Sequence record: NC_047767.1
DNA: 64,000 nt
Reading direction: 5' to 3' (one strand)
Origin: Staphylococcus phage vB_SscM-1
Positions within the stretch are counted from its first letter, which is position 1; each line of letters starts with the position of its first letter. A model generated the notes under the pieces. The model was not told the DNA's origin. It worked only from the letters and a program-made list of their open reading frames with translations, and made no database searches. This document shows positions 433-64,000 of this stretch, in pieces. The translations under genes and the position numbers were made by a program.

Positions 433-447
433 GAAGGGATAAAAGAC

Positions 448-1494: not shown

Positions 1495-1506
1495 GGAGGA
1501 TAAAAT

Positions 1507-5034: not shown

Positions 5035-5081
5035 TATTTATAATACAGGTATGTAAACTTTAAAAATATTCAGGTATATAG

Positions 5082-5110
5082 TTGACACATAAGTATAATT
5101 GTGTTATAAT
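5082..5110 (+). promoter_or_regulatory. Sigma-A consensus promoter: TTGACA, 17 bp spacer, TATAAT.
   Basis: TTGACA at 5082-5087 and TATAAT at 5105-5110. A second TATAAT lies at 5094-5099. Confidence 0.6.
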
Positions 5111-5193
5111 ATATGTATGCTTAACTATATACCTGTTATATTAATTACGAGCATAAAAACAAACAAAATAGTTTATGAAAGGAATTAATAACT

Positions 5194-5715
5194 ATGGCAA
5201 TAGCAACTTATAATTCAAGTGTAGAATTAGCTAAATATTTAGTTAGTAAAGCAGATTCTACATATCTAACGATTGGTAAAACAACTCCGTGGTCAAATGA
5301 AACAAAACCACCACAACCAGATGAAAACACAACAGCACTACAAGAGGTAATAGGGTATAAAAAGGCAACTAAAGTAACACTTGTAAGACCTTTTCAGACT
5401 CCTCAAGATGATGGAAAAGATACAATTTCTTATGGAAATACAGAATGGGTTATTGTACCTACAGAGAAAGCAACAGAAGAGGGAGCTAAGTGGCTCTATT
5501 TAGAAAGTGAAGTTGTTGGAGATGAGTTACCTTTAGGAACTTATAGACAAGTAGGATTTGTAATTGACCTTGTACCAAAAACAGGTATTAATAAGTTTAA
5601 CTTACTTCCTAGTGAAGTACAGAACACAGGAACATTAATGTTCTTTGATAACAAACAGTTCCAAAATAGAACAGAGCAAGTAACATCAAAAGAGAGAATG
5701 GTTATTCAGATTTAA
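5194..5715 (+). CDS. Tail/baseplate-associated structural protein, 173 aa.
   Basis: RBS, position inside the structural module. Confidence 0.4.
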
Positions 5716-5732
5716 GAAAGGGAGATTAATTG

Positions 5733-8700
5733 ATGGCATATAATTTTAGTTCAACACCATATTTAGATAGGTTTAATCCAGCTAAACACCATACAAGAGT
5801 ATTGTTTAACCCAGATAGACCTTTACAACAGTCTGAACTTAATGAAATGCAATCTATACAAACCTATTACCTTAAAAATTTAGGAGACTCTATTTTTAAA
5901 GACGGAGATAAACAATCAGGCTTAGATTTTACCTTAGATACAAACAAGGTACTGAAAGTAAATCCAGGGTATGTATATATTGATGGTAAATTAAGATACT
6001 ACAATAGTGAGTCTACAGTAAGACTTACAGGAGTAGGAAGAGAAACAGTTGGAATTAAGATAGAAGAAAGAATTGTAACACCTGATGAGGATAGTTCATT
6101 ATTAGACCAAACAAGTGGAGTACCTAGTCATTTTTCTAAAGGTGCAGACCGTTTAGAAGAGAAAATGACTCTAACATTAAATGACCCTACCTCAGCTACA
6201 ATTTATACATTCCAAGATGGGGATTTATATATTAAAGCTACAAGTCCAGAGATGGATAGAATTAATAAGGTACTAGCAGAACGTACTTACGATGAGTCAG
6301 GTTCATATAAAGTAAGTGGATTTGAATTATTCTCAGAGGGTAATGCTGTAGATGAAGACCATATATCACTTGTAGTAGATGCAGGGAAAGCATACGTATT
6401 AGGTTATAGTGTTAATAAACCTGTATCAACAAGAATTAATGTACCTAAATCATATGAACTAGGTACATCTGAGAACGAAAGTACAATATTTAATACCTCT
6501 ACAGGTTCTATTAGCTTAGCTAACTCACCTGTAAAAGATATTAATAGAGTTACAGCTCAAGTATTAGTAGATAAAGAGAGAGTAACAAGAGGAGCTATTG
6601 GAGATGGTCAAGACTACCTCTCTAACAACACAGCCTTTGAAGTTGTAAAAGTATGGACTGAAACAAGCCCAGGACAAACAACTAAGGAATACAAACAAGG
6701 TGAAGATTTTAGATTAATAGACGGACAAGCAATTGATTGGTCACCTTCTGGTCAAGAACCAAGTGGAGGTACAAGTTATTATGTATCTTATAAATACAAT
6801 AAACGTATGACAAAAGATGTAGACTATACAGTTACTACTACAGGTGAAGGTGTAGGTAAGAAATGGTACTTAAACTTTACACCATCTGGAGGAGCTAAAC
6901 CGATTGACCAAACAGTTGTATTGGTAGACTATACTTACTATTTAGCTCGTAAAGATGCTGTAGTACTAGACAAAGAAGGTAACATAACTGTAATAGCAGG
7001 ACAACCAAATATTTTAAGACTTGTTTCACAACCTATAAGAATTGACCCTAATACATTACAGTTAGGAACAATTACAGTTCTCCCAGATTCAGAAGATGCA
7101 GAGTGTTTAACTTATGCAGTAACTAGACTATCTATGGAAGACTTACAGAAGGTTAAAAAACGTGTAGATGATTTAGAAATAAATCAAGCTATAAACGCTT
7201 TAGATGATGGAGCTATGGAAGGTCAAAACCCTCTAACACTACGTTCAGTATTTAGTGAAGGTTTCATTAGTTTAGATAAGGCAGATATTACTCATCCAGA
7301 CTTTGGGGTAGTATTTAGTTTTGAGGATGCAGAAGCAACACTAGCTTATACAGAACAAGTAAATGCACCTGATATTATAGAAGGGGTATCTACAGCTCAC
7401 GTATGGGGTAGATTAGTCTCAGCACCATTCACAGAAGAGAGAACAATCTATCAAGGACAAGCTTCTGAAACGATGAATGTTAATCCTTATAATATACCTA
7501 ATAAACAAGGGGTATTAAAATTAACACCAAGTGAAGATAACTGGATAGAAACAGAAAATGTAACTATCACAGAACAAAAAACTAAGAAGATTACTATGAA
7601 CAGATTCTGGAGACATGGTGCTTCTCACTATAACGAAACAGAACACTATTTATACTCTAACTTACAATTAGATGCAGGTCAAGTATGGGAAGGTAAGTCA
7701 TACTCTTATGATAAAACTCATGGGCGTACAGGTACGCTTCTAGAGTCTGGAGGTCAACGTACTTTAGAGGAAATGATTGAGTTTATTAGACAAAGAGATG
7801 TTAAGTTTACTGTAAAAGGATTACATCCTAATGACAATAACCTAGTATTACTCTTCGATGGTGTTAGATGTGCTATAACACCTGATACAGGATATAGAAA
7901 AGGCTCAGAAGATGGAAGCATTATGACAGATGCTAAAGGGGTAGCAAAAGGTACATTCAGAATACCTCCAGGTATCCGTTGCGGTAACAGAGAAGTAACA
8001 CTTAAGAACGTAGATTCTACAAGTTCTACAACTTACTCAGCACATGGTCGTAAGAAAATAACACAGGATATTATTCTTAGAACAAGAGTTACAGTTAACT
8101 TGGTAGACCCATTAGCACAGTCATTCCAGTACGATGAAAACAGAACTATTTCATCTGTAGGATTATACTTTGCTAGTAAAGGTGATGCAAGTTCTAACGT
8201 ACTAGTACAGATTCGTGGAATGGGTGACCAAGGTTTCCCTAATAAAACAATCTATGCAGAAACGGTTATGAACGCAAGTGATATTAAAGTATCTAACAAT
8301 GCTAGTGCAGAAACAAGAGTATACTTTGAAGACCCTATGATGGCAGAAGCAGGTAAGGAATATGCTATTGTTATCATTACAGAGTCGGATGCTTATACAA
8401 TGTGGTTAGGTACTAGAACTAAACCGAAGATTGATAAGCCTAATGAAATCATCTCAGGTAACCCTTACGTTCAAGGTGTTCTATTCAGTTCATCTAACGC
8501 ATCTACATGGACTCCTCACCAAAACTCCGACCTTAAATTTGGGGTGTATACTTCTAAATTTGATGAGACAGCTACAATAGAGTTTGATTCTATTAAAAGC
8601 GTAGAAGCAGACAGAATCGTATTAATGTCTACTTACTTGACTCCTGATAATACAGGGTGTAGCTGGGAGATTAAGATTATCTTTGACGACATGGATGAGA

Positions 8701-9191
8701 ATGTAACATTTGACTCTATTGAATGGCAACCAATTGGTAATTATCAAGATACAGAGCTTTTAGGACTAGCAAGAGAAGTTAAACTTAAAGCTACATTTAA
8801 GTCTAACAGATATATCTCACCATTAATGAGTGTTAGTGATTTAACGTTTACTACATTCTTAACAGAGCTAAAAGGTTCTTATGTAGGAAGAGCTATTGAT
8901 ATGTCAGAAGCTCCTTATAACACAATCAGATTTAGTTATGAAGCATTCCTTCCTAAAGGTACTAAAGTAGTACCTAGATATTCTGATGACGATGGTAAAA
9001 CATGGAAAACATTTACTAAAGCACCTACTATTAAGAGAACAAATAACGAGTTCTCTCAATATGTAATAGATGAAAAAGTAAAATCATCAGGTAAAAATAC
9101 GAAGCTCCAAGTAAGACTAGATTTATCTACTGAGAATAGCTTCTTAAGACCAAGAGTAAGAAGACTAATGGTCACAACTCGTGATGAGTAA
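5733..9191 (+). CDS. Tail fibre / adsorption-associated protein, 1152 aa.
   Basis: AAGGGAG RBS 8 nt before the ATG at 5733. It is a very large structural ORF followed by an intrinsic terminator. In related phages this position holds the long tail fibre / adsorption protein. Confidence 0.5.
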   Translation: MAYNFSSTPYLDRFNPAKHHTRVLFNPDRPLQQSELNEMQSIQTYYLKNLGDSIFKDGDKQSGLDFTLDTNKVLKVNPGYVYIDGKLRYYNSESTVRLTGVGRETVGIKIEERIVTPDEDSSLLDQTSGVPSHFSKGADRLEEKMTLTLNDPTSATIYTFQDGDLYIKATSPEMDRINKVLAERTYDESGSYKVSGFELFSEGNAVDEDHISLVVDAGKAYVLGYSVNKPVSTRINVPKSYELGTSENESTIFNTSTGSISLANSPVKDINRVTAQVLVDKERVTRGAIGDGQDYLSNNTAFEVVKVWTETSPGQTTKEYKQGEDFRLIDGQAIDWSPSGQEPSGGTSYYVSYKYNKRMTKDVDYTVTTTGEGVGKKWYLNFTPSGGAKPIDQTVVLVDYTYYLARKDAVVLDKEGNITVIAGQPNILRLVSQPIRIDPNTLQLGTITVLPDSEDAECLTYAVTRLSMEDLQKVKKRVDDLEINQAINALDDGAMEGQNPLTLRSVFSEGFISLDKADITHPDFGVVFSFEDAEATLAYTEQVNAPDIIEGVSTAHVWGRLVSAPFTEERTIYQGQASETMNVNPYNIPNKQGVLKLTPSEDNWIETENVTITEQKTKKITMNRFWRHGASHYNETEHYLYSNLQLDAGQVWEGKSYSYDKTHGRTGTLLESGGQRTLEEMIEFIRQRDVKFTVKGLHPNDNNLVLLFDGVRCAITPDTGYRKGSEDGSIMTDAKGVAKGTFRIPPGIRCGNREVTLKNVDSTSSTTYSAHGRKKITQDIILRTRVTVNLVDPLAQSFQYDENRTISSVGLYFASKGDASSNVLVQIRGMGDQGFPNKTIYAETVMNASDIKVSNNASAETRVYFEDPMMAEAGKEYAIVIITESDAYTMWLGTRTKPKIDKPNEIISGNPYVQGVLFSSSNASTWTPHQNSDLKFGVYTSKFDETATIEFDSIKSVEADRIVLMSTYLTPDNTGCSWEIKIIFDDMDENVTFDSIEWQPIGNYQDTELLGLAREVKLKATFKSNRYISPLMSVSDLTFTTFLTELKGSYVGRAIDMSEAPYNTIRFSYEAFLPKGTKVVPRYSDDDGKTWKTFTKAPTIKRTNNEFSQYVIDEKVKSSGKNTKLQVRLDLSTENSFLRPRVRRLMVTTRDE

Positions 9192-9194
9192 ATT

Positions 9195-9217
9195 GAGGGG
9201 CTTTGCCCCTCTTTTTT
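9195..9217 (+). terminator. Rho-independent terminator.
   Basis: A GAGGGGC-TTT-GCCCCTC hairpin is followed by TTTTTT, immediately after the stop at 9191. Confidence 0.75.
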
Positions 9218-9244
9218 CTACATAATAAAAAAAGGAGAGGTAAT

Positions 9245-9406
9245 ATGCCACAAGAATATAGAGACCCTTATTCAAAAGCTAAGTTGTTTATACCTACTCA
9301 ACAAGAGAAGACAATTTCTCAAATGGAGGAAGAATTAAGGGATAAGCTATCCCAAGTTGATGAAGTATTAGCAAGATTGAATAAAGCAGAGAAAGGAAAT
9401 AAATAA
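9245..9406 (+). CDS. Small hypothetical protein, 53 aa.
   Basis: AAAGGAGAGG RBS 5 nt upstream of the ATG at 9245. The earlier start in the ORF track has no RBS. Confidence 0.4.
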   Translation: MPQEYRDPYSKAKLFIPTQQEKTISQMEEELRDKLSQVDEVLARLNKAEKGNK

Positions 9407-9407
9407 T

Positions 9408-11138
9408 ATGAGTTTTTCATTTGTAAGCATAAAAGAAACTGATAGACTTAAAGATGTATACCCCAAGATAAATGCAATAGGGGAAGAGTTAAGTAAACCT
9501 AACAGTATTTATAAACAATTAAATGATTTAAAAACTACTGTATCCAAGTATCAAACGTACAAGTTGACAACAGATACAGGACAATATACAAGTGGTCAAG
9601 TTATTAATTTAGATACAGTACAGGGTTCTAAGACAGTATATGGTACAATCACTAATCCACCTAAAGGACTTTCAGGAGAAGGGTGGATAAGTTATAAAGA
9701 GTCAGAAGGTTCTAATACCACTCTTGTAAACTTTTACCCGATAGATAGTGATAGTATATATACTAAAGTACGTAAATTACCTAAGCAAACACAAAACCCT
9801 AACTTATTACATGATACAACATTCTCAGGATTACCTATGTATGGTTCTTACACATTACCCGAAGGTGTATGGTGGGATACTAATGGGGATAGAACTACAG
9901 TTAACTACCCAGACCCTACCGTTAAATATCAAGGTATTAATACAGTAAGATTACAAGATACATCTACAACTTACCCTATGTTAAGACATAAAGGTTTAGA
10001 GGTAGGTAAAGATGTAAATATAGGAGATAAAGTAACACTTAGTGTGTATGTTTATACACCGGATAAGTCATTATTTAATGGGAATAACGCCTATATTACA
10101 ATAACAGGATATCCCGGTGAAATAGGTTCTAGTAACACTAGCTTAGCTACAACTACTGTATATGAAAGTGATTTGGAAAATAGCCAATGGAAAAAACTAA
10201 CATGTACAGCTACAGTTCCAAGTACAGTAGGGGGTTCACCTATACAATATGTTAGTGCCATGTTAAGACTAAGCTTAACTAAAGGTGGTTTTGATAATGG
10301 ACTTAAAGTTTATTATGCACTACCTAAGTTAGAAAAGGGCACGGTAGCAACACCTTATGTATCACACCCGGACGATAAGATACAGTTTAATGAGCTATGG
10401 TCAGAGTGGTCGGAACAAAAGAGTAAGTTACAATCAACTAATGATAGTGTTACGGATATACATTATGATAACTACTTTAAGTATGCATGGTGGAGAGATA
10501 AAGTAGGTACTAGAACCTTACAAGATTTAGCCTATGAATTACCACAAGGGTTCCATACATTCTATGCACAAAGAGGTATACCAGGAATATTACCGGATGC
10601 TAGTATTAGAGGTATGATTAATGTAGACTATGATGAAGGGCATATAGATTCTAAGTATAAATTCGTTCAAATGTATTATATGGATTATTTTGGTAACTTC
10701 TATACTCAATATTACGATGCTAATAAAGGTTGGTATGAACCTATAAAAAGTATTGGTTCAAAAGAACTTTGGACTGGTACACAAGACATCGGTAGTAACC
10801 TTAACTATATATTTAATTTACAAGATAATATAAATAATTACGATTATATAGAGATTGAATATTATACAAATAGTTCAAGCAGATTTACCGAAACTAGAAA
10901 GTTAAAAGTTTTAAGTAATTCTGCATTAGCTATTACAACTACTAGAATGGATGCTCATGACCCTACAGGTACATCTATAAGTACATGGCAAGCAGAGTTT
11001 TCCATAGATAATAACACTCAAATAACAGCTAAATATTGTAAACGTATACTTGTTAATGCTAGTGGTAATAGTTCTGTACTTGGTCAAAATACCTCAGGAT
11101 TATTTACAATAAAACGTATCGTAGGGATTAAGGAATAG
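9408..11138 (+). CDS. Receptor-binding / tail-fibre protein, 576 aa.
   Basis: Translationally coupled to the upstream gene. The size and position match the first RBP of Twort-like/SPO1-like phages. Confidence 0.45.
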   Translation: MSFSFVSIKETDRLKDVYPKINAIGEELSKPNSIYKQLNDLKTTVSKYQTYKLTTDTGQYTSGQVINLDTVQGSKTVYGTITNPPKGLSGEGWISYKESEGSNTTLVNFYPIDSDSIYTKVRKLPKQTQNPNLLHDTTFSGLPMYGSYTLPEGVWWDTNGDRTTVNYPDPTVKYQGINTVRLQDTSTTYPMLRHKGLEVGKDVNIGDKVTLSVYVYTPDKSLFNGNNAYITITGYPGEIGSSNTSLATTTVYESDLENSQWKKLTCTATVPSTVGGSPIQYVSAMLRLSLTKGGFDNGLKVYYALPKLEKGTVATPYVSHPDDKIQFNELWSEWSEQKSKLQSTNDSVTDIHYDNYFKYAWWRDKVGTRTLQDLAYELPQGFHTFYAQRGIPGILPDASIRGMINVDYDEGHIDSKYKFVQMYYMDYFGNFYTQYYDANKGWYEPIKSIGSKELWTGTQDIGSNLNYIFNLQDNINNYDYIEIEYYTNSSSRFTETRKLKVLSNSALAITTTRMDAHDPTGTSISTWQAEFSIDNNTQITAKYCKRILVNASGNSSVLGQNTSGLFTIKRIVGIKE

Positions 11139-11150
11139 GAGGATAATAAA

Positions 11151-11498
11151 TTGAAATATATAAATGTAAAACAAGATGGTTACCTAGGTATAAACATTAA
11201 TAATGATACTAGAGTAATAAATGGTTATGTGTTATCCGGTGGGGTAGGAGAGCAAGATATTATTATCCATGAGAGCGTATTACCTTATAATTTCTATGAC
11301 GAGTTTATTGTAGGTAAATTTAAGTATTATAGAGAGACGGGTGAAGTTATAGAGGACTATAACTTCGTACCTCCTAACTACGATATACAAGAACCTATAC
11401 CGGAACAAGAAACAGTATCTAAAGAAGAATTTGATAGTTTAAAAAATGAATTAGATGAAATGAGAAAACTATTAGAGAAATTATTAGGAGGTAAATAA
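11151..11498 (+). CDS. Small protein with a C-terminal coiled coil, 115 aa. Possibly a tail-fibre assembly factor.
   Basis: TTG start 8 nt after AGGAGG. Heptad-like C-terminus (KNELDEMRKLLEKLL). Confidence 0.35.
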   Translation: MKYINVKQDGYLGININNDTRVINGYVLSGGVGEQDIIIHESVLPYNFYDEFIVGKFKYYRETGEVIEDYNFVPPNYDIQEPIPEQETVSKEEFDSLKNELDEMRKLLEKLLGGK

Positions 11499-11500
11499 TA

Positions 11501-12853
11501 ATGGCTCTTGACAACTTTAATGAATTAACTAAAAATAATAATGTTAAAGACATGACAGATGCAATTAATAGTATAGGTTTGGAACTATCTAAACCTAGAA
11601 ATGTATTTGAATTAGTATCTGATTTACAAGTACAAGTTAAAAATACACAACTAAAAGCTATTACTACAGATAAGGGATTAAGTAAAGTACCTACAGGAAC
11701 AAGAATTTTAGATGTAAAAGAGGTAGGTGTTTACTACTATAGTGCTAGTACTTTAGCTACAAAGACAGATAAACCAGAGATGAACTCTCAAGATACTGTA
11801 CTAGTTGTTACACCAACAAATGATGCATCTGTAGTAGTACAGACTATATACCCTTTAACTGTAAGTGGTAATGCTATTCAACAAGCCTATAGGGTTGTTA
11901 TAGGTAATACAGCAGGAGATTGGGTTTATCTTAAAGGTTTAGTAGGAGGAAACACAAATTCTATAAGTGGAGTAAACCTAGATACTTTCTCTACCCCTGG
12001 AGAATATTTTATTTCCGGCTCAACAGGACTACCAGAAGGAGAGACAGAAGGACTACTAAAAGTATACAGAGGTACTAATAATAAAATTGTACAAGAATTC
12101 ATATCTAGCTTAACAAAAAGTAAATATTTCAAAATAACAAGCATTTCAACAGGATGGATAAAAGAATTAGAACCTAAAACTTTAAGTAAATACACATTAG
12201 GTGGAATTAACGATGAAGGTCAAGGAACTTTTGGTTTACTAATATATATAAGTGATAACAAAACATTTCAACAAGCTATAACAGACCATATAGCAAAAAC
12301 AGGACAACCTACATTTACATTTTATGTACAAGGTGGTGTTACAGGAAACCCACTAGGGGGTTTAAGTGGTAGAGGTATATTTGTATGTGAGTCTACTAGT
12401 GAAAGTGCACTAAGTAATAACTTATATGGTGTGTACCATGTAATATCTACACTAGGTACATTAATTACCGGTTCTGTTATTGGTGGAGACTGGCGTATAC
12501 CTAAGGGTTCAGATTCTACAACTACTTTATGGACTGGTGTTAAAGAGTTCACAAGTAAAACAACGGAAACTATGAACTATAGCTCTAATGACTTTGATTA
12601 CTTTAAGGTATATGTTACTATAGGAGGAACTAATAGTAACTCTATCTATAGACAAGGGTTTGAATTTGGTAAGCATAGTGCTAACAAATATAAGGTATCA
12701 AGTGTAAATGTACCTTCAAGTGGAACTACGTTAGAGTACTTTATGTGTTCAATATCATTTAATGGTAATAAATTTACAATTGATGAATATAATACTAAAA
12801 CTAATGGTAAGTGTTACGTAACGGAGATAGTAGGTATAAAGAGACCTATTTAA
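11501..12853 (+). CDS. Second receptor-binding/tail-fibre protein, 450 aa.
   Basis: Coupled to the upstream gene. It is the last gene before the terminator that closes the structural operon. Confidence 0.45.
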   Translation: MALDNFNELTKNNNVKDMTDAINSIGLELSKPRNVFELVSDLQVQVKNTQLKAITTDKGLSKVPTGTRILDVKEVGVYYYSASTLATKTDKPEMNSQDTVLVVTPTNDASVVVQTIYPLTVSGNAIQQAYRVVIGNTAGDWVYLKGLVGGNTNSISGVNLDTFSTPGEYFISGSTGLPEGETEGLLKVYRGTNNKIVQEFISSLTKSKYFKITSISTGWIKELEPKTLSKYTLGGINDEGQGTFGLLIYISDNKTFQQAITDHIAKTGQPTFTFYVQGGVTGNPLGGLSGRGIFVCESTSESALSNNLYGVYHVISTLGTLITGSVIGGDWRIPKGSDSTTTLWTGVKEFTSKTTETMNYSSNDFDYFKVYVTIGGTNSNSIYRQGFEFGKHSANKYKVSSVNVPSSGTTLEYFMCSISFNGNKFTIDEYNTKTNGKCYVTEIVGIKRPI

Positions 12854-12860
12854 TTATTAA

Positions 12861-12888
12861 AGACTAGATTAATTTCTAGTCTTTTTTA
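12861..12888 (+). terminator. Rho-independent terminator (AGACTAGA-TTAATT-TCTAGTCT then a T-run).
   Basis: A perfect 8-bp stem, a 6-nt loop and TTTTTT. The same element recurs at 39869-39896. Confidence 0.75.
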
Positions 12889-12889
12889 T

Positions 12890-12918
12890 TTGACTTAAAA
12901 GGGTAAGTGTGGTATAAT
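12890..12918 (+). promoter_or_regulatory. Sigma-A promoter TTGACT, 17 bp, TGgTATAAT (extended -10) driving the helicase operon.
   Basis: -35 at 12890-12895 and -10 at 12913-12918. The T-run of the terminator runs straight into the -35. Confidence 0.65.
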
Positions 12919-12951
12919 ATAAAGAGTGTAAGAAGGGATAAGGAGAATTAC

Positions 12952-14706
12952 ATGAAATTAATAGTAAAAAACTTATACACGTACGTAAATTTTGAAGAAG
13001 GTGATTATTATTTAAAGGATGTATTCTTAAAACGAGTACATAAGACAATAGGAGCAAGGCAAGATGGCTTTCAGTTTAGTCCTGCGTATAAAAGAGGTAG
13101 TTGGGACGGTTATGTAGACTTTTATGATTATGAGGAAAACAAATTTCCTACAGGACTATTACCAAAAGTAACTAACCTTTTGGGTGAACTACAAACTAGA
13201 TATTCTTTTCAGTATGATATAGAGTATCAGAGAGATGAGAGTTTCTTAGCTGAGGAAGATATAGATGAAGAGATAACTTTGTTAGACAATAATGTAGGTG
13301 AGATAACTTTAAGAGGTTATCAGTATGAAGCTGTGTATAATAGTCTAACATACTATAATGGTATAGTCCACGTAGCCACAAATGGAGGAAAAACTGAAAT
13401 GGCTAGTGGTATAATAGACCAACTTCTTCCACAATTAAGAAAAGGAGAACGTATAGCATTCTTCACAGGTTCGTCAGAAATATTTCATCAGTCAGCAGAT
13501 AGACTTAAAGAAAGACTAAACATACCTATAGGTAAAGTAGGAGCAGGACAATTTGATGTTAAACAAGTAACAGTTGTTATGGTTCCTACAATGAATGCTA
13601 GTTTAAAAGACCCTGCACAGGGTGTTAAGGTCACACCTAAGCAGAACATTAGTAAAAAGATAGCAACAGAAATATTACCTAAGTTTGAAGGAGGAGGAAG
13701 TAATCAAAAGAAATTACTTTCAATGTTAATAAAAGGATTTCAACCTAAAACTAAGGTAGACCAAAACGTTAAAGATACACTTATAAAAGTATATGAACAG
13801 AGTAATAGTGACTCAGAAGTGCTAATGAATTTAAGAGCCTTTAATGCAGACTACCAAAGTATTATAAGAGAGAAGAATACAAGTAAGTATGATAAGTATA
13901 AGAGAATGAGAGAATTTTTAGATTCTGTAACAGTGATGATAGTTGATGAAGCCCACCATTCTAAATCAGATACGTGGTATTTAAATCTTATGACTTGTGA
14001 GAACGCATTATACAGAGTAGCATTAACAGGTTCTATTGATAAGAAAGATGAAATGCTTTGGATGAGATTACAAGCCTTGTTTGGTGATGTAATAGTTAGG
14101 ACAACTAACTCTTACCTTATAGACCAAGGACATTCTGCCAGACCTACTATAAATATGATACCTATAGCACAGCCAACAGATATAGAAGATGTTAAAGAAT
14201 ATAGGGAAGCATATGATAAAGGTATAACAAATAATAGTTTTAGAAATAAAGTTATTGCAAAACTAGCAGAAAGATGGTATAATAATGACAAGGGTGTTTT
14301 AATCATTGTAAACTTTATCCAACATGGTGAAAATATTTCTGAACTGCTAGATGATTTAGGTGTAGAGCATTACTTTTTACACGGAGAGATAGACTCTAAC
14401 ACAAGGAAAGAAAAGCTTAACGACATGAGAAGTGGTAAGCTTAAAGTTATGATTGCAACATCACTTATTGATGAAGGTGTAGATATCTCTGGTATTAATG
14501 CACTTATACTAGGAGCAAGTGGTAAATCACTAAGACAAACACTTCAACGTATTGGTCGTGCTTTACGTAAGAAGAAAGATGATAATACAACACAGATATT
14601 CGATTTTAATGATATGACACATAGGTTCTTATTAGGTCATGCAGGAGAAAGATTAAAGATATATGATGAAGAGGAATTTGAAGTAAAATATGTAGGGAAA
14701 AAATAA
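12952..14706 (+). CDS. SF2 DEAH-box DNA helicase.
   Basis: Motif I is ATNGGKTEMA, motif II is MIVDEAHHS, motif III is ALTGS and motif VI is QTLQRIGRALR. AAGGAGAA RBS before the ATG at 12952. Confidence 0.85.
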   Translation: MKLIVKNLYTYVNFEEGDYYLKDVFLKRVHKTIGARQDGFQFSPAYKRGSWDGYVDFYDYEENKFPTGLLPKVTNLLGELQTRYSFQYDIEYQRDESFLAEEDIDEEITLLDNNVGEITLRGYQYEAVYNSLTYYNGIVHVATNGGKTEMASGIIDQLLPQLRKGERIAFFTGSSEIFHQSADRLKERLNIPIGKVGAGQFDVKQVTVVMVPTMNASLKDPAQGVKVTPKQNISKKIATEILPKFEGGGSNQKKLLSMLIKGFQPKTKVDQNVKDTLIKVYEQSNSDSEVLMNLRAFNADYQSIIREKNTSKYDKYKRMREFLDSVTVMIVDEAHHSKSDTWYLNLMTCENALYRVALTGSIDKKDEMLWMRLQALFGDVIVRTTNSYLIDQGHSARPTINMIPIAQPTDIEDVKEYREAYDKGITNNSFRNKVIAKLAERWYNNDKGVLIIVNFIQHGENISELLDDLGVEHYFLHGEIDSNTRKEKLNDMRSGKLKVMIATSLIDEGVDISGINALILGASGKSLRQTLQRIGRALRKKKDDNTTQIFDFNDMTHRFLLGHAGERLKIYDEEEFEVKYVGKK

Positions 14707-51101: not shown

Positions 51102-51284
51102 ATGGATTTTGCACAGCATTTAAAACAAGAGAAAGAGAAACTAGGAACACCTAAGTTTAAACAGAAGCAAGAACCTGTAAGAAGGTTTACAGATGAGCAA
51201 AAGAAAGAACTTTGGAAGCGGGTTAAATCTAAATCTTCTTACATTGATTTAAGAAAAGATATTGACAAATACACATATCTATAG
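51102..51284 (+). CDS. Hypothetical basic protein, 60 aa.
   Basis: Coupled to the upstream gene. Confidence 0.4.
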   Translation: MDFAQHLKQEKEKLGTPKFKQKQEPVRRFTDEQKKELWKRVKSKSSYIDLRKDIDKYTYL

Positions 51285-51290
51285 TATAAT
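51262..51290 (+). promoter_or_regulatory. Sigma-A promoter TTGACA, 17 bp, TATAAT that transcribes into a 255-nt non-coding structured region.
   Basis: -35 at 51262-51267 and -10 at 51285-51290. Confidence 0.6.
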
Positions 51291-51545
51291 ACTATTATAA
51301 GCTACAGAAAGTTATTCACCTCTAAGGGATTGAGATATCGAACCCTTACCTGGGAAGGGAGGTCTTATGTAGGTACGACAGGTGCTTTCCGGTACAATAA
51401 CAAAAAAAATAAGAAAAAGGTTCACTTTAGATTTTTACTAGAGTAAGATAGCGGAAACTATCTTACTTACCTAGAGCACATAGGCAAGTGCTTGTGTGTT
51501 GTAGGTAGGTTTAACCTGCTACTTAATTAAAGGAGGAATATATTA
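51291..51545 (+). ncRNA. Candidate structured non-coding RNA or long 5' leader.
   Basis: GC-richer than the flanks. No ORF. Hairpins at 51323-51348, 51442-51467 (10-bp perfect stem AGTAAGATAG/CTATCTTACT) and 51506-51530. An RBS-ATG-TAG start-stop at 51355-51372. Confidence 0.3.
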
Positions 51546-51857
51546 ATGGAGAGAGTTATGGATTCTATTGACAAAGCTACAGGCGTTACCTGGGGAGCTT
51601 TAGTAACTCAACAGGTATTTTATGGAATAGGAATGATTATCTTAGCATCACTAGCATTGTTAGGTTTATATGTAATCTTGAAGAGGGTTACAATTAGAAA
51701 TATTAGCTTCAATGTATCATTAGTAATGTTATTCTTGACAGTAGTAAGTATTGCATTATTAGGATATGGATTTATGCATGTAATCAATCCTGGATATTAT
51801 GCTTTACAGGATATGAAAGATTCTTCATTCCAGTTTATTGATGCAGTTAAGCACTAA
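51546..51857 (+). CDS. Small membrane protein, 103 aa.
   Basis: AAGGAGGAA RBS. Two TM helices. Confidence 0.45.
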   Translation: MERVMDSIDKATGVTWGALVTQQVFYGIGMIILASLALLGLYVILKRVTIRNISFNVSLVMLFLTVVSIALLGYGFMHVINPGYYALQDMKDSSFQFIDAVKH

Positions 51858-59225: not shown

Positions 59226-59256
59226 AACATACATTTTATAGAGGAGATGATTGGAA

Positions 59257-60360
59257 ATGAAAACTGAATATAAGTATCAAGTAGGTGAAGTAGTTAATGA
59301 AACACTGAGGATAATAAGTCAGACAAGAACTTTACCCAATAAAAGGAATAAAACAAATAAAGCTTATGAAGTACAAAGCTTAGTATACCCTGATGCACCT
59401 ACATATATATCATCTGAATCAACTTTAAAAAGGGGATGTGGGTGCTCCTATAACTATGGTAAGAGAGTGTATGCAGGCAATTCATTGTATAGTGTAGAGC
59501 ATATCAGACCCTACTTAATAGATATAAAAGAAGCAAAAAAAATTGCAAAAAGTTCAACTAAAAAAATTAATTTTAAATGCTCTCAGTGTAACATAGTTAA
59601 AAAAATGGCTCCTTACACTCTTATCAAGCATGGTATTATGTGTCCTAAATGCTCTAAAGGTACTAGTTACCCAGAGTTATTCATGATGGCTTATTTAGAG
59701 GTAAAAGGAATTGAGTATGAGTATCAAAAAGTATTTGATGATTTACCTAATAGAAGATTTGATTTTTATTTACCTAAAGAGAATGTGGTAATAGAGACTC
59801 ATGGAGTACAGCATTATAGCAATTCTAGTGCATGGAACAACTTAAGTACTACAACACAATCTGATAAAGAAAAACAGGAGTATTGTAGAGCTAATAATAT
59901 ATCTTATATAGAGATAGATGCAAGGAAAAGTAACTTTAAATTTATTAAAGACAGTGTGACTGATAGCAATTTATCTAACATAAATAGTAAAGAGAATGAG
60001 TTAATACTTAAACACATAGAAAATAATAAGAGGTATTGCACAAAAGAAATAGTTAAACTTTACAAAGAAGGTAGGAGTACTATTGAAATAGCTAAGATAT
60101 ACAGTATAAGCTATACAACTGTTAACAATATTTTATTGAGAAACGACATAACTATAAGGAGTGCAAAACAAGTCAGGAGTAAACCCGTAAGGTGTGTTAA
60201 TATAAATAAGATTTTTAATAGTATATCAGAGGCTTGTGTGGAACTAAATATAAGTAACTCTGTGAGAAGTAACATATCTAGGGTGTGCAAGGGTAATGGA
60301 AACTATGCAGGTAAACACCCAGTAACAGGAGAAAAGTTAAAATGGGAATATGTTGACTAG
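59257..60360 (+). CDS. Freestanding homing-endonuclease-like protein. It has a Zn ribbon, a putative nuclease core and two C-terminal NUMOD1-type HTH repeats.
   Basis: CSQC...CPKC Zn ribbon. RFDFYLPKENVVIETHGVQHY core. Two repeats of the type TIEIAKIYSISYTTVNNIL and SISEACVELNISNSVRSNISRVCKG...GEKLKWEYV, like the DNA-binding tails of phage GIY-YIG/HNH homing endonucleases. Confidence 0.5.
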   Translation: MKTEYKYQVGEVVNETLRIISQTRTLPNKRNKTNKAYEVQSLVYPDAPTYISSESTLKRGCGCSYNYGKRVYAGNSLYSVEHIRPYLIDIKEAKKIAKSSTKKINFKCSQCNIVKKMAPYTLIKHGIMCPKCSKGTSYPELFMMAYLEVKGIEYEYQKVFDDLPNRRFDFYLPKENVVIETHGVQHYSNSSAWNNLSTTTQSDKEKQEYCRANNISYIEIDARKSNFKFIKDSVTDSNLSNINSKENELILKHIENNKRYCTKEIVKLYKEGRSTIEIAKIYSISYTTVNNILLRNDITIRSAKQVRSKPVRCVNINKIFNSISEACVELNISNSVRSNISRVCKGNGNYAGKHPVTGEKLKWEYVD

Positions 60361-60406: not shown

Positions 60407-60505
60407 ATGTTGACTATTAAAACAATTAAAGAAACAATATTAGAGCAACCTGGGATTTTCGTTCTCTCTCCCACTCGTACAGCCTTATACTACCGACTTG
60501 GTTGA
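60407..60505 (+). CDS. Possible 32-aa peptide (MLTIKTIKETILEQPGIFVLSPTRTALYYRLG) in the non-coding region downstream of the endonuclease gene.
   Basis: AAGTGGAG RBS 6 nt before the ATG. Low confidence, because it lies in a structured region. Confidence 0.2.
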   Translation: MLTIKTIKETILEQPGIFVLSPTRTALYYRLG

Positions 60506-60762
60506 TTACTCAACTAACCAACCTCATTGTACACAACTTAATTGTGCTTGATGGTATGCTTATCTACTCTTATGTAACCTTTATCTTATAGTAAGAAGCG
60601 GTAACCTTAGCTTATATACTATTAATGTGGTATATAATATGTATAATACTGGTACTGATGTATCAAGGGCTCAAGATGTATTTGTGAATAAGGTTGTATA
60701 AAAGACTCCACTTTCCCTAGGGTTAGTATTCATAAAAATGAATAAATGTATAAAATTAATCC

Positions 60763-60791
60763 TTGACACCCGCTTCATCTTATGTTATAAT
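60763..60791 (+). promoter_or_regulatory. Sigma-A promoter TTGACA, 17 bp, TATAAT (TATGTTATAAT) with CCGCTTC in the spacer.
   Basis: -35 at 60763-60768 and -10 at 60786-60791. Confidence 0.6.
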
Positions 60792-60823
60792 AAGAGTATA
60801 AATAATAAAGGAGATTGATAGTT

Positions 60824-61126
60824 ATGAATATTAAAGAGATTACGGTAAGGTTAGCAAAGGTCATTCAAGAGAAGGATGCAGAAGTATTCAGTATGATTAT
60901 ACGAGATAAGAAGGATAAGACTAAGCCTAGTAGTATTACCCTTAATGGTGTAGCAGACCTATTCATGTTAGAAGCGGATGGTGTTATATTGTACTCAGTT
61001 AAGTTTATGGGTGAGGAAGTACTTAGAAGTTGGAGTAAGACTGGAGCATTAGAGACTGTAGTATACTATGCTCAGGAGTATGCAGATAATAGAGCACATT
61101 ACAATAAGATTAAGAACAGTATATAG
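60824..61126 (+). CDS. Hypothetical protein, 100 aa.
   Basis: AAAGGAG RBS before the ATG at 60824. Confidence 0.45.
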   Translation: MNIKEITVRLAKVIQEKDAEVFSMIIRDKKDKTKPSSITLNGVADLFMLEADGVILYSVKFMGEEVLRSWSKTGALETVVYYAQEYADNRAHYNKIKNSI

Positions 61127-61137
61127 GAGGAATAGAC

Positions 61138-61521
61138 ATGGATAGAAAGCTATTTAAAGACTTATTAGAGTACATCAAAGAGAATGGGTATGAGGATAAA
61201 GGAAGGTTCCCAACACATAACTACAAATCGTTAGATGTAACCTTATTAACTTTCGATTTTAAACTACAAATTAGCTATGTGTTTGATATGTTAGATAATA
61301 TGGTAGTGTTAAAGGGTATAGATGTAATAGATGTAGACAAAGGTGAGTGGATAGGTCATTTACTTGATTGTGAATTTCGTACACTTACCGATTGGCATGA
61401 TTATAAAGATATGAAACTTCGTGACATTATAGATGTCATGTTAATAGACCATAAAAAGAGCTGGGGAATTTATGAGGAAGAACCAAAAGAAGTAAGAGTT
61501 AAAGATTTCTTATATGGGTAA
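61138..61521 (+). CDS. Hypothetical protein, 127 aa.
   Basis: TAGGAGGAA RBS. Confidence 0.45.
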   Translation: MDRKLFKDLLEYIKENGYEDKGRFPTHNYKSLDVTLLTFDFKLQISYVFDMLDNMVVLKGIDVIDVDKGEWIGHLLDCEFRTLTDWHDYKDMKLRDIIDVMLIDHKKSWGIYEEEPKEVRVKDFLYG

Positions 61522-61527
61522 TAACTG

Positions 61528-61556
61528 TTGACAACTGATTCTACCTATGTTATAAT
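61528..61556 (+). promoter_or_regulatory. Sigma-A promoter TTGACA, 17 bp, TATAAT (TATGTTATAAT).
   Basis: -35 at 61528-61533 and -10 at 61551-61556. Confidence 0.6.
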
Positions 61557-61584
61557 AAGGTATGAATATTAAGGAGGAGTAGAC

Positions 61585-61836
61585 ATGGAAGTAATCAGAA
61601 CGTTTTACGCAGTATATAGAGACGGTAAATTAGTTAAGAGAGGGTTAGGTAGAGATGACCTTATCTCAGGCTTATACAACTCCTGGAGGAAGGGTGTTAC
61701 TAAGGTGATACCTTTTACCTTTAACAATGGTTCAGGAATGTACTTTGATGATATAGATGTACCTAGCTTAGTAGAAGCGGTTAATGAAGAAGGTGTTCTT
61801 AAGATAGAGGTAAGTTATAGTACACAAGAAATTTAA
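61585..61836 (+). CDS. Hypothetical protein, 83 aa.
   Basis: TAAGGAGGAG RBS. Confidence 0.45.
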   Translation: MEVIRTFYAVYRDGKLVKRGLGRDDLISGLYNSWRKGVTKVIPFTFNNGSGMYFDDIDVPSLVEAVNEEGVLKIEVSYSTQEI

Positions 61837-61854
61837 GAAGTTGGGTGTTAAGGG

Positions 61855-61883
61855 TTGACAACCGCTTCTTAGTATGGTATAAT
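61855..61883 (+). promoter_or_regulatory. Sigma-A promoter TTGACA, 17 bp, TGgTATAAT with CCGCTTC in the spacer.
   Basis: -35 at 61855-61860 and -10 at 61878-61883. Confidence 0.6.
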
Positions 61884-61914
61884 ACTAGTATAAACAATAG
61901 GGAGGAAGATAATT

Positions 61915-62340
61915 ATGAATACAATGAAATTATTAGAGGGTATTACAAGTAGATTAAATATTAATGATATTAAGGTAAGTAAAATTGTATTGGTAGGGGC
62001 TATGATAGAGCTAGAGGGTGTTATGAGTATTGTAAATTACTCCAAGGATGATAGTAAAGATTATGACTATAGAGTAGCTACCCGTGATTCTGTAGAGTAT
62101 TTTAATAATACTAGACTTGCTACAGATGCTATTATCAAAGAGGTTAGGAAGTTTAAAGAATTTAAAGCAGGTCGTATTGTAGAGAATGATGGTAAGAAGT
62201 TTATGCTTGTACCTGTTGAAGGGACTACTGAGTGTTTCCATCTACTAGACTTAGATACACTTGAAGTAAATCGTGAATGGGTATCTGATATAGAACTATA
62301 CAAAAATGATTATTATTTATCAGGAGGAGAAGCGGAATGA
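61915..62340 (+). CDS. Hypothetical protein, 141 aa.
   Basis: TAGGGAGGAAG RBS. Confidence 0.45.
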   Translation: MNTMKLLEGITSRLNINDIKVSKIVLVGAMIELEGVMSIVNYSKDDSKDYDYRVATRDSVEYFNNTRLATDAIIKEVRKFKEFKAGRIVENDGKKFMLVPVEGTTECFHLLDLDTLEVNREWVSDIELYKNDYYLSGGEAE

Positions 62341-62906
62341 AATTAAATTTCGAGACTAACATTGCAGAGGGTACACCTGAGGAGCTAGTAGAATACTTAA
62401 GATTAGTAGAAGGGAATAGCACAGAAGAACCAGAAGAAGCGGAAGAACCTTCTACAGAACTTAAAGTAGGAGATAAGGTAAGAGTATTAAACAGTCTCTA
62501 TGGAGCTGAAGGAGAGGCTACTGTAACTAAGGTACTAGAAGGTGGTAAGGTAGAGATAGCAGGTACAAGTAATTATGGTACTTATTTAACGAACTGGAGT
62601 AACTGTGTATCCTTCCTAGAGAAGATAGAAGAGGAAGAAGATGTAGAAGTAGAAGAAGCGGATGGACTTCTAGGTTACAGATACTGGTACTTAGACACTG
62701 CTAACTTTAATAAATTTGTTGTACTAAAAGCAAGAGCTAATTACTTTGAAGATTCAATAGGTAAGAGATACACTTATCAGGCTGTAAGCGGGTATGTAAA
62801 ACCTATTGACAGAGAAGATGCTTATGTAAAATTTGATTTTGCTGAAAGAAAAGGAGCTCTATTAAGTTACTACCCTACAGTAGATATCTTTCAGATTAGT
62901 TATTAA
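62337..62906 (+). CDS. Hypothetical acidic protein, 189 aa, carrying the paralogous N-terminal motif AEGTPEELVEYL.
   Basis: AGGAGGAG RBS. ATGA overlap with the upstream gene. Confidence 0.45.
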   Translation: MKLNFETNIAEGTPEELVEYLRLVEGNSTEEPEEAEEPSTELKVGDKVRVLNSLYGAEGEATVTKVLEGGKVEIAGTSNYGTYLTNWSNCVSFLEKIEEEEDVEVEEADGLLGYRYWYLDTANFNKFVVLKARANYFEDSIGKRYTYQAVSGYVKPIDREDAYVKFDFAERKGALLSYYPTVDIFQISY

Positions 62907-62908
62907 TT

Positions 62909-62927
62909 GAAGCGGGTTAACCGCTTC
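62909..62927. repeat. Perfect palindrome GAAGCGGGTTAACCGCTTC (two inverted GAAGCGG heptamers around a GTTAAC core).
   Basis: Read directly. It is part of the GAAGCGG motif cluster. Confidence 0.9.
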
Positions 62928-63026
62928 TCCTACTTAGAGTATATAAGTAGTTGTATATTGTAAGTAGGAGTGGTAATCCTACAGTTCTTGTAAAGGAACC
63001 ATTTTGGTTTGTTCCGACAAGCCGAA

Positions 63027-63058
63027 CCCTCTATCTCAGAAATAGGGGGTTTTTATTT
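63027..63058 (+). terminator. Rho-independent terminator.
   Basis: CCCTCTAT-ctcagaa-ATAGGGGG hairpin (one G-U pair) plus TTTTTATTT. Confidence 0.65.
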
Positions 63059-63063
63059 AGGTG

Positions 63064-63092
63064 TTGACATATACTAAGTAGTATGTTATAAT
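63064..63092 (+). promoter_or_regulatory. Sigma-A promoter TTGACA, 17 bp, TATAAT (TATGTTATAAT).
   Basis: -35 at 63064-63069 and -10 at 63087-63092. Confidence 0.6.
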
Positions 63093-63122
63093 TGATATAT
63101 AATCAATAAGGAGGAAGCGGTT

Positions 63123-63290
63123 ATGGTAGTTTTAATTATAGTACAGATTTTGTTATTAGTATTACAGATTTTATCATTGGTGTTACTTATCAAAACAGAT
63201 GATGATTTCTGGTTATTTATTTCAAATATATTCTTTGCAGGTGTAGTTGGAATGATGGTTTATATTTTAATGTCTTATGGACTCGTATAA
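63123..63290 (+). CDS. Small hydrophobic membrane protein of 55 aa (MVVLIIVQILLLVLQILSLVLLIKTDDDFWLFISNIFFAGVVGMMVYILMSYGLV). The ORF track misses it.
   Basis: AAGGAGGAAG RBS and its own consensus promoter. Two TM helices. Confidence 0.5.
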   Translation: MVVLIIVQILLLVLQILSLVLLIKTDDDFWLFISNIFFAGVVGMMVYILMSYGLV

Positions 63291-63303
63291 AGGAGGAATT
63301 AAA

Positions 63304-63903
63304 ATGAAACTAGAAACTAAGTATGGAGTACTAGAGGGTACTGTAGAAGAGTTTAAAGAACTATTAGAAGGTAAGAAAGACTTAAGTTACTTCTCAGGTG
63401 AAGCGGAAGAGGATATTAAACCAACGTATAAGATTGTTAATAAGGATACGATAGATTATAATTCAGGAGTACGTATTTTTAAAGGTATAGTACTTGAACA
63501 CACATCAAGAGATTGGTATACAACAAAGAGTATGTATACAGATACGGTGGGTAACCTTTATGAATTACATGAGAGTGACCTAGATGATTATAATATGTCT
63601 TGGGTAGATGCTAAGTTTAAGTCATTTAAGGATAAAGACCTTTTACTTATTCAGAAAGAGGAAGATAAGTATAAAGTAGTTAAAGAGGATATTTATTTCC
63701 CTATGGATGGTAATAGTGTTCTTGAGAAAGGTACAGTATTGATTGAAGGTAGTATTAATTCTTATAAAGACTCTTTAGGTAACACCTATCGTTTAAGCCT
63801 AGATACAATAGAAGATAAGTTAGAAGGAGTTTACGGTAGTGTAGGACTTCGTTTTGAAGAACATAAGCTTAATAACAAATTATATAAAGTAGAATTACCT
63901 TAG
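63304..63903 (+). CDS. Hypothetical protein, 199 aa, carrying the paralogous N-terminal motif LEGTVEEFKELL.
   Basis: AAAGGAGGAA RBS before the ATG at 63304. Confidence 0.45.
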   Translation: MKLETKYGVLEGTVEEFKELLEGKKDLSYFSGEAEEDIKPTYKIVNKDTIDYNSGVRIFKGIVLEHTSRDWYTTKSMYTDTVGNLYELHESDLDDYNMSWVDAKFKSFKDKDLLLIQKEEDKYKVVKEDIYFPMDGNSVLEKGTVLIEGSINSYKDSLGNTYRLSLDTIEDKLEGVYGSVGLRFEEHKLNNKLYKVELP

Positions 63904-64000
63904 AATCAATTCTAAGGGTACTCAGAGTCTCATAGAGAGCCTTTAAGGTTAAAGTAGAGGGATTGTTAGGAAAAGGTCTACCGCTTCTCTATAAGGATTA

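Follow-up and report, generated by a model that had tools for sequence, protein, structure and literature searches.

Staphylococcus phage vB_SscM-1 (sequence record NC_047767.1) is represented here by a stretch of 64,000 nucleotides, referred to below as the window, the end of which contains a dense cluster of the heptamer GAAGCGG. The same heptamer is the Chi sequence of Staphylococcus aureus, where it lets high-molecular-weight rolling-circle plasmid DNA accumulate (Halpern 2007, as related in bioRxiv 10.1101/2021.07.08.451572). The cluster lies at the start of what appears to be a long terminal repeat (LTR), and the heptamer is similarly concentrated in the corresponding region of other staphylococcal phages. 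Here we investigate the heptamers of the window and of related phages, and consider what role they may have at the ends of these genomes.

The end of the window and its heptamers

In its core genes the window shares about 95.5% identity with Staphylococcus phages ZCSS1 and UHP46, and about 93% with PG-2021_31, PG-2021_33, PG-2021_76 and MSShimriz1. All of these relatives are Herelleviridae of the Twortvirinae, ZCSS1 and PG-2021_33 being filed in the genus Sciuriunavirus, and the window is from a Sciuriunavirus-like Herelleviridae phage of Staphylococcus/Mammaliicoccus. The relatives were isolated on Mammaliicoccus sciuri, M. vitulinus or S. aureus, and those of the PG-2021 series infect 6–8 species. 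The final 3.5 kb of the window correspond to the start of the relatives' records and are only about 82% identical to ZCSS1, with several indels.

The first base of the PG-2021_33 record corresponds exactly to window position 60453, and the ZCSS1 and UHP46 records begin approximately 26 bp (22–27) upstream of it. The sequence at this point, ..AACCTG/GGATTTTCGTTCTCTCTCCCACTC (the slash marks the border), has a homologue in phage K, ..TACCTG/GGAATTCTTTTACCTCTCTCACTC, at the left border annotated for its 8486-bp LTR. In Kayvirus 812, a close relative of K, a repeat of 8484 bp has been delimited by read coverage. Because of the border homology to K and the starting points of the relatives' records, 60453 is taken here as the putative left border of an LTR. 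Four perfect σ70 promoters with an extended -10 element, together with small open reading frames (ORFs), are present between 60.3 and 64 kb. Promoters and small ORFs of this kind are typical of the early, host-takeover region in these phages. Pfam and PHROGs searches of the repeat ORFs gave no functional clue, and an Rfam search of the whole window found no RNA family at threshold.

There are 14 copies of GAAGCGG in the window, counting both strands, and 13 of them, 9 '+' and 4 '-', fall within 60595–63987. The original prediction, which was made from the sequence alone, had every position and strand in this cluster right, although its heading gave the count in the last 3.4 kb as 12. The copies and their surroundings are listed here, with positions in coding sequences (CDSs), at ribosome binding sites (RBSs) and in relatives given where applicable.

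60453..64000, +, putative LTR, its first 3.5 kb; assigned by border homology, with the window ending inside the repeat
60595..60601, +, Chi heptamer, non-coding, 142 bp inside the border; kept in ZCSS1 (169) and PG-2021_33 (142), with a K copy at 129
60770..60776, -, Chi heptamer in a promoter spacer, one base after the -35 hexamer (TTGACAcCCGCTTC); kept in ZCSS1 at 344, where adjacent spacer bases differ
60971..60977, +, Chi heptamer in CDS 60824–61126, read L-E-A-D; kept in ZCSS1 (545), flanks poorly conserved
61774..61780, +, Chi heptamer in CDS 61585–61836, read V-E-A-V; same codons (GAA GCG GTT) in the K homologue PhageK_006, whose protein is 45% identical
61862..61868, -, Chi heptamer in a promoter spacer (TTGACAaCCGCTTC); kept in ZCSS1 at 726
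62329..62335, +, Chi heptamer at the 3' end of CDS 61915–62340 (G-E-A-E-stop), just before the next start codon; in this phage only, aligned with GTAGCAG in ZCSS1
62436..62442, +, Chi heptamer in CDS 62337–62906, in the acidic stretch E-E-A-E-E; the ZCSS1 copy is 9 nt away in the same stretch
62655..62661, +, Chi heptamer in CDS 62337–62906, read E-E-A-D; kept in ZCSS1 at 1733
62909..62927, no strand, Chi hairpin with arms GAAGCGG gttaa CCGCTTC, directly after the stop of CDS 62337–62906; both arms in ZCSS1, with a different loop
63114..63120, +, Chi heptamer overlapping the RBS (AGGAGGAAGCGGTTATG) of ORF 63123–63290; in this phage only, AGGAGGAGAGAATTATG in ZCSS1
63400..63406, +, Chi heptamer in CDS 63304–63903, read G-E-A-E-E; kept in ZCSS1 at 2539
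63981..63987, -, Chi heptamer, intergenic, downstream of CDS 63304–63903; kept in ZCSS1 at 3114

The hairpin at 62909–62927 is a real perfect palindrome, GAAGCGGGTTAACCGCTTC, as had been described, with a 7-bp stem, a dG of -8.2 kcal/mol and a z of -4.8. In ZCSS1 a '+' partner at 3070 forms a long inverted repeat with the 3114 copy, and this partner is missing in the window.

The excess of the heptamer is real. A second-order Markov model trained on positions 1–60452 predicts 0.035 copies for the 3548 bp after 60452, as against the 13 present (Poisson P for at least 13, ~1e-29), which bears out the over-representation that had been noted. Dinucleotide-preserving shuffles of the whole window gave a mean of 0.78 copies and a maximum of 3, where the actual number is 14. 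In an unbiased comparison of k-mers between 60430–64000 and the rest of the window, GAAGCGG/CCGCTTC was the single most enriched 7-mer (13 versus 1, p 7e-16), and in K, ZCSS1 and the window alike enrichment was no higher beyond k=7. The G+C content of the repeat region is ~0.33, that of the rest of the window 0.30–0.36 and mostly ~0.31–0.32. The density is a property of the cluster and not of the whole window, as had been supposed, with 13 copies in the last 3.4 kb and one elsewhere, and the relatives show the same confinement. The lone outside copy, previously placed at 51225, starts at 51215; it lies within a small ORF in another reading frame (W-K-R-V) and fits the chance expectation. In the window and its relatives the spacing of the heptamers is irregular, from 12 to more than 1500 bp, on both strands.

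The coding copies (n=6 in the window) are always in the frame GAA-GCG-Gnn. In the ORFs of 1–60452, GCG makes up 1.2% of the Ala codons (9/743); after 60452 it makes up 6/32, and all six lie inside the heptamer, so that its reputed rarity is real. The tripeptide Glu-Ala-(Gnn) is written GAAGCGG inside the repeat in 6/6 cases in the window, 12/13 in ZCSS1, 7/9 in K and 3/4 in Remus, and outside the repeat in 0/21, 0/39, 0/34 and 0/26 cases, respectively. This contrast between the inside and the outside of the repeat demonstrates that GAAGCGG is selected at the level of the DNA rather than of the protein, independently of coding, as the original prediction had proposed. The '-' copies, awkward to encode on the '+' coding strand, are found almost exclusively in non-coding DNA, and these non-coding copies look like an active provision of the second orientation. 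Avoidance of GAAGCGG in the unique region was also considered and set aside: the ORFs tested contain no in-frame copies, yet codon usage predicts just 0.2–0.7 of them per genome, so their absence is uninformative.

The heptamers are placed wherever the sequence is free to vary, that is in promoter spacers, in hairpin stems, in an RBS, in intergenic DNA and in Glu-Ala codons. The contexts reported earlier, namely the promoter spacers at 60770 and 61862, the RBS at 63114 and the in-frame copies with GCG, were all found as described. Hairpins with heptamer arms are situated downstream of genes, one in the window, five pairs in ZCSS1 and two in K, each of them giving both orientations. The heptamer itself has no dyad symmetry, the only dyads being these two-heptamer hairpins with their variable loops. 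Sequences flanking 65 copies (taken from K, ZCSS1 and Remus) match the background and have nothing in common beyond the heptamer except a mild excess of T at +1/+2 (41/65 copies have T at +1, compared with 45% after GG generally); an extended motif was dropped on these grounds.

When the window is compared with ZCSS1, 9 of the 12 alignable heptamers are intact, as against 40% of all aligned 7-mers (p 0.014), so their positions are conserved in a relative, and they are kept even where the flanks or the hairpin loops have diverged. Other copies are present in one phage only (63114 and 62329 in the window; 1284, 1328 and 3070 in ZCSS1) or are shifted by 9 nt (62436). Such conservation of individual sites together with turnover at constant density is expected if number and orientation matter more than exact position.

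Could the heptamers be sites for a phage or host DNA-binding protein that regulates the early transcription units, for example a repressor of early promoters? In the promoters at 60770 and 61862 CCGCTTC comes directly after the -35 hexamer (TTGACAnCCGCTTC), one base beyond it, so that two of the four perfect σ70 promoters carry the heptamer; ZCSS1 has three promoter-spacer copies of the same type (344, 726 and 1328), K has one at 436, and the heptamer is confined to the early region. Against this, the other two perfect promoters lack it, 9 of the 13 window copies are outside promoters, and the K spacer copy is in the opposite orientation and at a different position, so there is no fixed placement relative to the promoter. 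The CDS copies are made with a rare codon far from promoters, the hairpin and RBS copies are left unaccounted for, and a site with neither dyad symmetry nor a consensus past 7 bp, where an operator would have such symmetry or some 12 bp or more of consensus, is a poor candidate for a regulator. In addition, the exact agreement with the host Chi would have to be accidental, at odds of about 1 in 8000 heptamers, and the Bacillus phage SPO1 enriches the Bacillus subtilis version of Chi, as described below. A regulatory role, which the original prediction had put forward, is therefore unlikely, although the promoter copies may have one. The iteron or partition role that it also offered fits poorly as well, since iterons are regular direct repeats of ~17–22 bp in a compact region, whereas these are 7-bp units irregularly placed on both strands, over 8–13 kb in the relatives.

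Two of the ORFs that contain heptamers resemble one another. Those starting at 62337 and 63304 have similar N-termini (62337–62400 and 63304–63370; MKLNFETNIAEGTPEELVEYL and MKLETKYGVLEGTVEEFKELL, 10/21 identical, E 0.036), and each has a Chi heptamer 95–100 bp after the start codon, in or next to an acidic stretch.

Host Chi sequences in the repeats of other phages

The heptamer was counted in further phage genomes with the following results.

ZCSS1: 32 copies in the first 12.3 kb ('+'-strand early block), 2 in the other 127 kb; 21 '+', 11 '-'; whole genome counted
PG-2021_33: 29 copies in the first 13.0 kb, 1 in the next 37 kb; 19 '+', 10 '-'; first 50 kb counted
Phage K (Kayvirus, S. aureus): 20 copies per annotated 8486-bp LTR, 0 in the 131-kb unique part; 13 '+', 7 '-'; whole genome counted
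Remus (Silviavirus, S. aureus): 10 copies in 100.8–108.8 kb (early block before the '-'-strand genes), 1 elsewhere; whole genome counted
pSco-10 (incomplete Twortvirinae, S. cohnii): 8 copies in the first 978 bp, 0 in the next 49 kb

No other 7-mer is as strongly enriched in the repeats of K (p 5e-25) and ZCSS1 (p 2e-31) as GAAGCGG. The same pattern is present in three genera, between whose repeats megablast shows little similarity at the DNA level. In these phages a sequence identical to Chi, selected at the DNA level and present in both orientations, is confined to the repeat to an extreme and conserved degree. pSco-10 had been entertained as an independent phage family, and was withdrawn as such when it proved to be an incomplete Twortvirinae genome.

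The S. aureus chromosome provides the natural comparison. Its 2.82-Mb genome contains 335 copies of GAAGCGG, 89.7% of them co-oriented with replication (Halpern 2007, as related in bioRxiv 10.1101/2021.07.08.451572). All seven bases are identical in phage and host, nothing beyond the heptamer is shared, and the CDS frame is the same, GAA GCG G. In the host, however, there is approximately one copy per 8.4 kb (0.12 per kb), mostly in ORFs and co-oriented with replication, whereas the phage repeats have 2.4–3.7 copies per kb, 20–30 times the density, on both strands and frequently in non-coding DNA. The frequency of Chi in the host has been argued to follow codon usage; the phage array opposes the codon usage of the phage itself.

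Does the motif change with the host? The Chi of B. subtilis is AGCGG, the 3' part of GAAGCGG (bioRxiv 10.1101/2021.07.08.451572). In SPO1 this pentamer is the top repeat-enriched 5-mer, with 46 copies in the repeat (1–13185) and 97 in the other 119 kb (p 3e-13). The repeat copies are 29 '+' and 17 '-', and GAGCGG is the most enriched 6-mer. With a reservation given below, these sequences suggest that the motif enriched in the repeat follows the host's own version of Chi. SPO1 is like the staphylococcal phages in having a terminal repeat with host-takeover genes, in which the host Chi is the top enriched k-mer, on both strands and with an excess of '+' copies; it differs in that its motif is a 5-mer with a high background (97 copies outside) and in that enrichment is ~4-fold rather than absolute. 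We found no published mention of AGCGG enrichment in the SPO1 repeat.

The '+' copies outnumber the '-' copies by about 2:1 in every array: 9:4 in the window, 13:7 in K, 21:11 in ZCSS1, 19:10 in PG-2021_33 and 29:17 in SPO1. In the part of the SPO1 repeat that has '-'-strand genes AGCGG '+' is still ahead, by 10:6, numbers too few for significance. Since the excess persists where the genes are on the '-' strand, coding convenience alone may not account for it.

A Chi hairpin was also seen in a siphovirus, whose lineage differs from that of these phages. Sextaecvirus PT1-4 has a homologue of ORF 62337–62906 (PHROG 16491) with an adjacent Chi hairpin (87022–87042 of its record), the two arms of which are the only copies of GAAGCGG in its 88.6-kb genome. 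The occurrence of gene and adjacent hairpin together suggests that a gene of this type and its Chi hairpin may be mobile as one module. PT1-4 was rejected as an independent array, as it has this single hairpin only.

Host AddAB and the ends of the phage genome

AddAB loads at a double-strand end of DNA, and unwinds and degrades it until it meets Chi, here presumably 5'-GAAGCGG-3' read on the 3'-ended strand. The heptamers of the repeat are probably Chi sites of this host helicase-nuclease (AddAB, also RexAB), accumulated there by selection. The original prediction had missed the identity of the heptamer with the host Chi, and its overall interpretation is upheld in part only. We infer that AddAB reaches the phage ends and that recognition of Chi is the function under selection, with protection, recombination or both as the benefit; most likely the array would stop the host enzyme from degrading the phage ends and make it a helper in joining them. 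In S. aureus in vivo, the AddAB-dependent processing of free DNA ends is limited by chi sites, which is no longer so in an AddA nuclease mutant (PMC8860600).

The following sequence of events is envisaged. The injected genome would be linear with a free double-strand end on each side, at which AddAB would load and degrade the DNA up to a Chi site. An enzyme from the right end would read the '+' copies of the right-hand repeat, and one from the left end the '-' copies of the left-hand repeat; since both genome ends carry the same sequence, both orientations are needed in one repeat. The first copy in active orientation for an enzyme entering the left end is that at 60770, 318 bp from the putative left border, and in K the distance to the first such copy in the right orientation is 403 bp at the left end and ~565 bp at the right end. 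After Chi, degradation of the 3' strand would be attenuated and RecA would be loaded on a 3' tail inside duplicated DNA. The end DNA lost would be redundant, and the 3' tail may invade the other copy of the repeat. Invasion could then lead to circles or concatemers and to the start of recombination-dependent replication. A likely side effect would be that AddAB-dependent acquisition of CRISPR spacers from the ends reaches no further than the outermost few hundred bases.

This kind of feature is known from phage P1, and what is new here is its occurrence in virulent phages of Gram-positive hosts, with an AddAB-type enzyme and near-absolute confinement to the repeat. In P1, E. coli Chi is concentrated in and near the terminal redundancy, and growth needs RecA and RecBCD, which has been attributed to circularisation (Subramaniam and Smith). 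As here, the host Chi is the most over-represented k-mer, lies near the packaged ends in both orientations and is non-coding as often as coding, and its proposed use is RecBCD/RecA-driven recombination between terminal repeats. P1, however, is temperate and infects E. coli; it packages by the headful, its ends vary, the enzyme is of the RecBCD type and Chi becomes gradually sparser away from pac. The staphylococcal phages are virulent, with an apparently fixed repeat, an AddAB-type enzyme and near-absolute confinement (0 of the 20 copies outside in K). The dependence of P1 on RecA and RecBCD is experimental, and no data of this kind were found for Herelleviridae. Chi-rich lambdoid phages likewise depend on RecBCD for growth (Genome Res 2025, PMC12315714). 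They too are enriched in the host Chi, and they exploit the helicase-nuclease of the host rather than inhibit it; they differ in being cos phages of E. coli in which Chi is not reported to be confined to a terminal repeat. The repeat signals of T5 (the injection stop signal and nick sites of the record annotation) are also short cis-elements of a long terminal repeat with first-expressed genes, but they lie near the inner end of the repeat, serve a two-step DNA transfer and are unrelated to the host Chi. T5 was tried as a further case of a Chi array and found too weak: in its first 50 kb there are only two E. coli Chi octamers, at 8127 and 8689, both '+' and inside the 10.2-kb terminal repeat, and none in the next 40 kb. 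In the literature searched, no publication connected Chi with the terminal repeats of phages like Twort or SPO1; subscription-only reviews, such as those of Twort-like phage genomics, were outside the coverage of this search.

Several points weigh against the heptamers being Chi sites used by the host enzyme. Neither the literature searched nor the present analysis offers an experiment in which AddAB acts on these phage ends, and a direct interaction between AddAB and GAAGCGG is described as undemonstrated even in S. aureus (bioRxiv 10.1101/2021.07.08.451572). The Chi in question is that of S. aureus and may not be that of Mammaliicoccus, a recorded host of the closest relatives: with PBP2a as bait, host contigs of 13.7 kb from M. 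fleurettii and 21.7 kb from S. caeli were found, and the M. fleurettii DNA, a sample too small to reveal the Chi of the genus, contains 3 copies of GAAGCGG, all on one strand. The terminal-repeat status of the Sciuriunavirus-like clade is based on border homology, and PhageTerm has called the PG-2021 relatives 'pac' or 'unknown' and not long direct terminal repeats. The ~2:1 excess of '+' copies is a ratio that end protection does not predict. Because the two Chi sequences are related to each other, as are the two groups of phages, a conserved phage protein reading (G)A(A)GCGG remains compatible with the comparison to SPO1. Finally, the Mammaliicoccus phage PMS3, also of the Twortvirinae, has no GAAGCGG in the 98 kb examined (1–50000 and 100001–147811), and there is none in the 3.1-kb repeat of Listeria phage A511. 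The Chi array is not universal in Herelleviridae.

The absence of the array from PMS3 and A511 bears equally on a different explanation, in which the heptamers are a cis-signal for the phage's own machinery, be it a RecA-like recombinase, an SbcCD-like nuclease, replication, or the duplication of the repeat in packaging. Their strict confinement to the repeat in Kayvirus, Silviavirus and Sciuriunavirus is what such a signal would show, and SPO1, with homologous replication and recombination genes, enriches a related motif. PMS3 and A511, however, share the conserved replication, recombination and packaging modules of the Herelleviridae without having the array, so the heptamer is hardly a cis-signal that this machinery requires. 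The difference between SPO1 (AGCGG/GAGCGG) and the staphylococcal phages (GAAGCGG) parallels the difference between the Chi sequences of their hosts. The original prediction had included a packaging or terminal-repeat signal among its candidates, of which the tie to the terminal repeat stands. A packaging or border signal does not, for the border has a conserved sequence of its own, CCTG/GGA..TCTCTC..CACTC, which differs from GAAGCGG, and the heptamers are spread irregularly through the whole repeat and not placed at its border. We regard a signal for the phage's own machinery as improbable.

That the excess is a functionless by-product of acidic Glu-Ala-rich proteins, of local composition or of an amplified promoter/terminator module, as copies in acidic stretches such as EEAEE and the likeness of some promoter and hairpin contexts might suggest, is very improbable given that the repeat ORFs use GCG for Ala only in the heptamer (6/6) and the same tripeptides elsewhere never do, that the G+C content hardly differs from the rest of the window, that the 65 flanks share nothing past the heptamer, that copies were gained independently in an RBS and at a stop codon, and that the pattern recurs in three genera with little similarity between their repeats.

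If the heptamers are host Chi sites, what would follow? Among the phages used in therapy against staphylococci, Kayviruses and their relatives are the most important, and SPO1 is a model phage of classic standing. How linear phage DNA survives end-processing, and how the repeat is used after injection, are poorly understood, and an array of host Chi that is limited to the repeat suggests a definite mechanism, one in which AddAB/RexAB and RecA take part. A strategy proposed for E. coli phages (P1 and some lambdoid phages) would then extend to virulent Gram-positive phages whose hosts have AddAB-type enzymes. It would predict where CRISPR adaptation can sample these phages, and host range could be restricted where the Chi of the phage does not match that of the host. 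Therapeutic phages whose terminal repeats are engineered or 'cleaned up' might in that case lose a feature that they need.

A broader generalisation is possible, though we put it forward only tentatively and think it more doubtful than the role of the array itself: that the LTRs of many Herelleviridae are host-specific 'Chi shields', at which AddAB and RecA stop and then join the copies of the repeat. Such shields would limit CRISPR sampling and, because the array must match the Chi of the species infected, would form a hidden determinant of host range. The top repeat-enriched k-mer of a phage could in that case be used to read out the Chi sequences of Gram-positive hosts.

Other repeated elements and neighbouring genes

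A second heptamer, GCTGGAG, is found 17 times in the ZCSS1 repeat (15 '+', 2 '-'; 5065–11655, past the part that the window covers) and once in the remaining 127 kb. It is placed like GAAGCGG, in CDSs and as hairpin arms (GCTGGAGctttCTCCAGC), and the window has a single copy at 17343. Its first five bases (GCTGG) are those of the E. coli Chi, and it is the Haemophilus influenzae Chi variant GCTGGAGG minus the final G. As a second Chi-like array it was rejected, with 3 copies in the first 50 kb of PG-2021_33 and none in K or in 98 kb of PMS3. AGCGG is likewise missing from the first 8 kb of PMS3, in whose early block the repeated elements are longer and contain GCTAGCC and CAGATCTG.

Within the K LTR (234–4875) CCCTAGG is present 7 times, compared with 0 outside. 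Tandem arrays of CTATCCTA/TAGGAT are located in K at 2274–2586 and in ZCSS1 at 3132–3210, in the latter directly past the point that matches the end of the window. TAGGAT has been reported to border a duplication (PMC6445280).

Directly upstream of the repeat border in the window is a 369-aa ORF (59251–60360) with matches to families of homing endonucleases and HNH proteins (PHROGs 9084 and 559) and with a helix-turn-helix at its C-terminus. ZCSS1 does not have this endonuclease-like ORF at the border, and tandem 11-bp repeats (ACACATAGACA) occupy the place, in the final ~100 bp of its record. In phage K the corresponding position is taken by tandem repeats of 35 bp.

Elsewhere in the window, a near-consensus promoter (TTGACA..17..TATAAT) is followed by a 260-bp intergenic stretch (51262–51545) with G+C-rich segments that could pair; no ORF and no Rfam match were found in it. 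In phage K the LTR border is spanned by the octamer TACCTGGG, which is present in the window at 51347, within this stretch, and at 51587.

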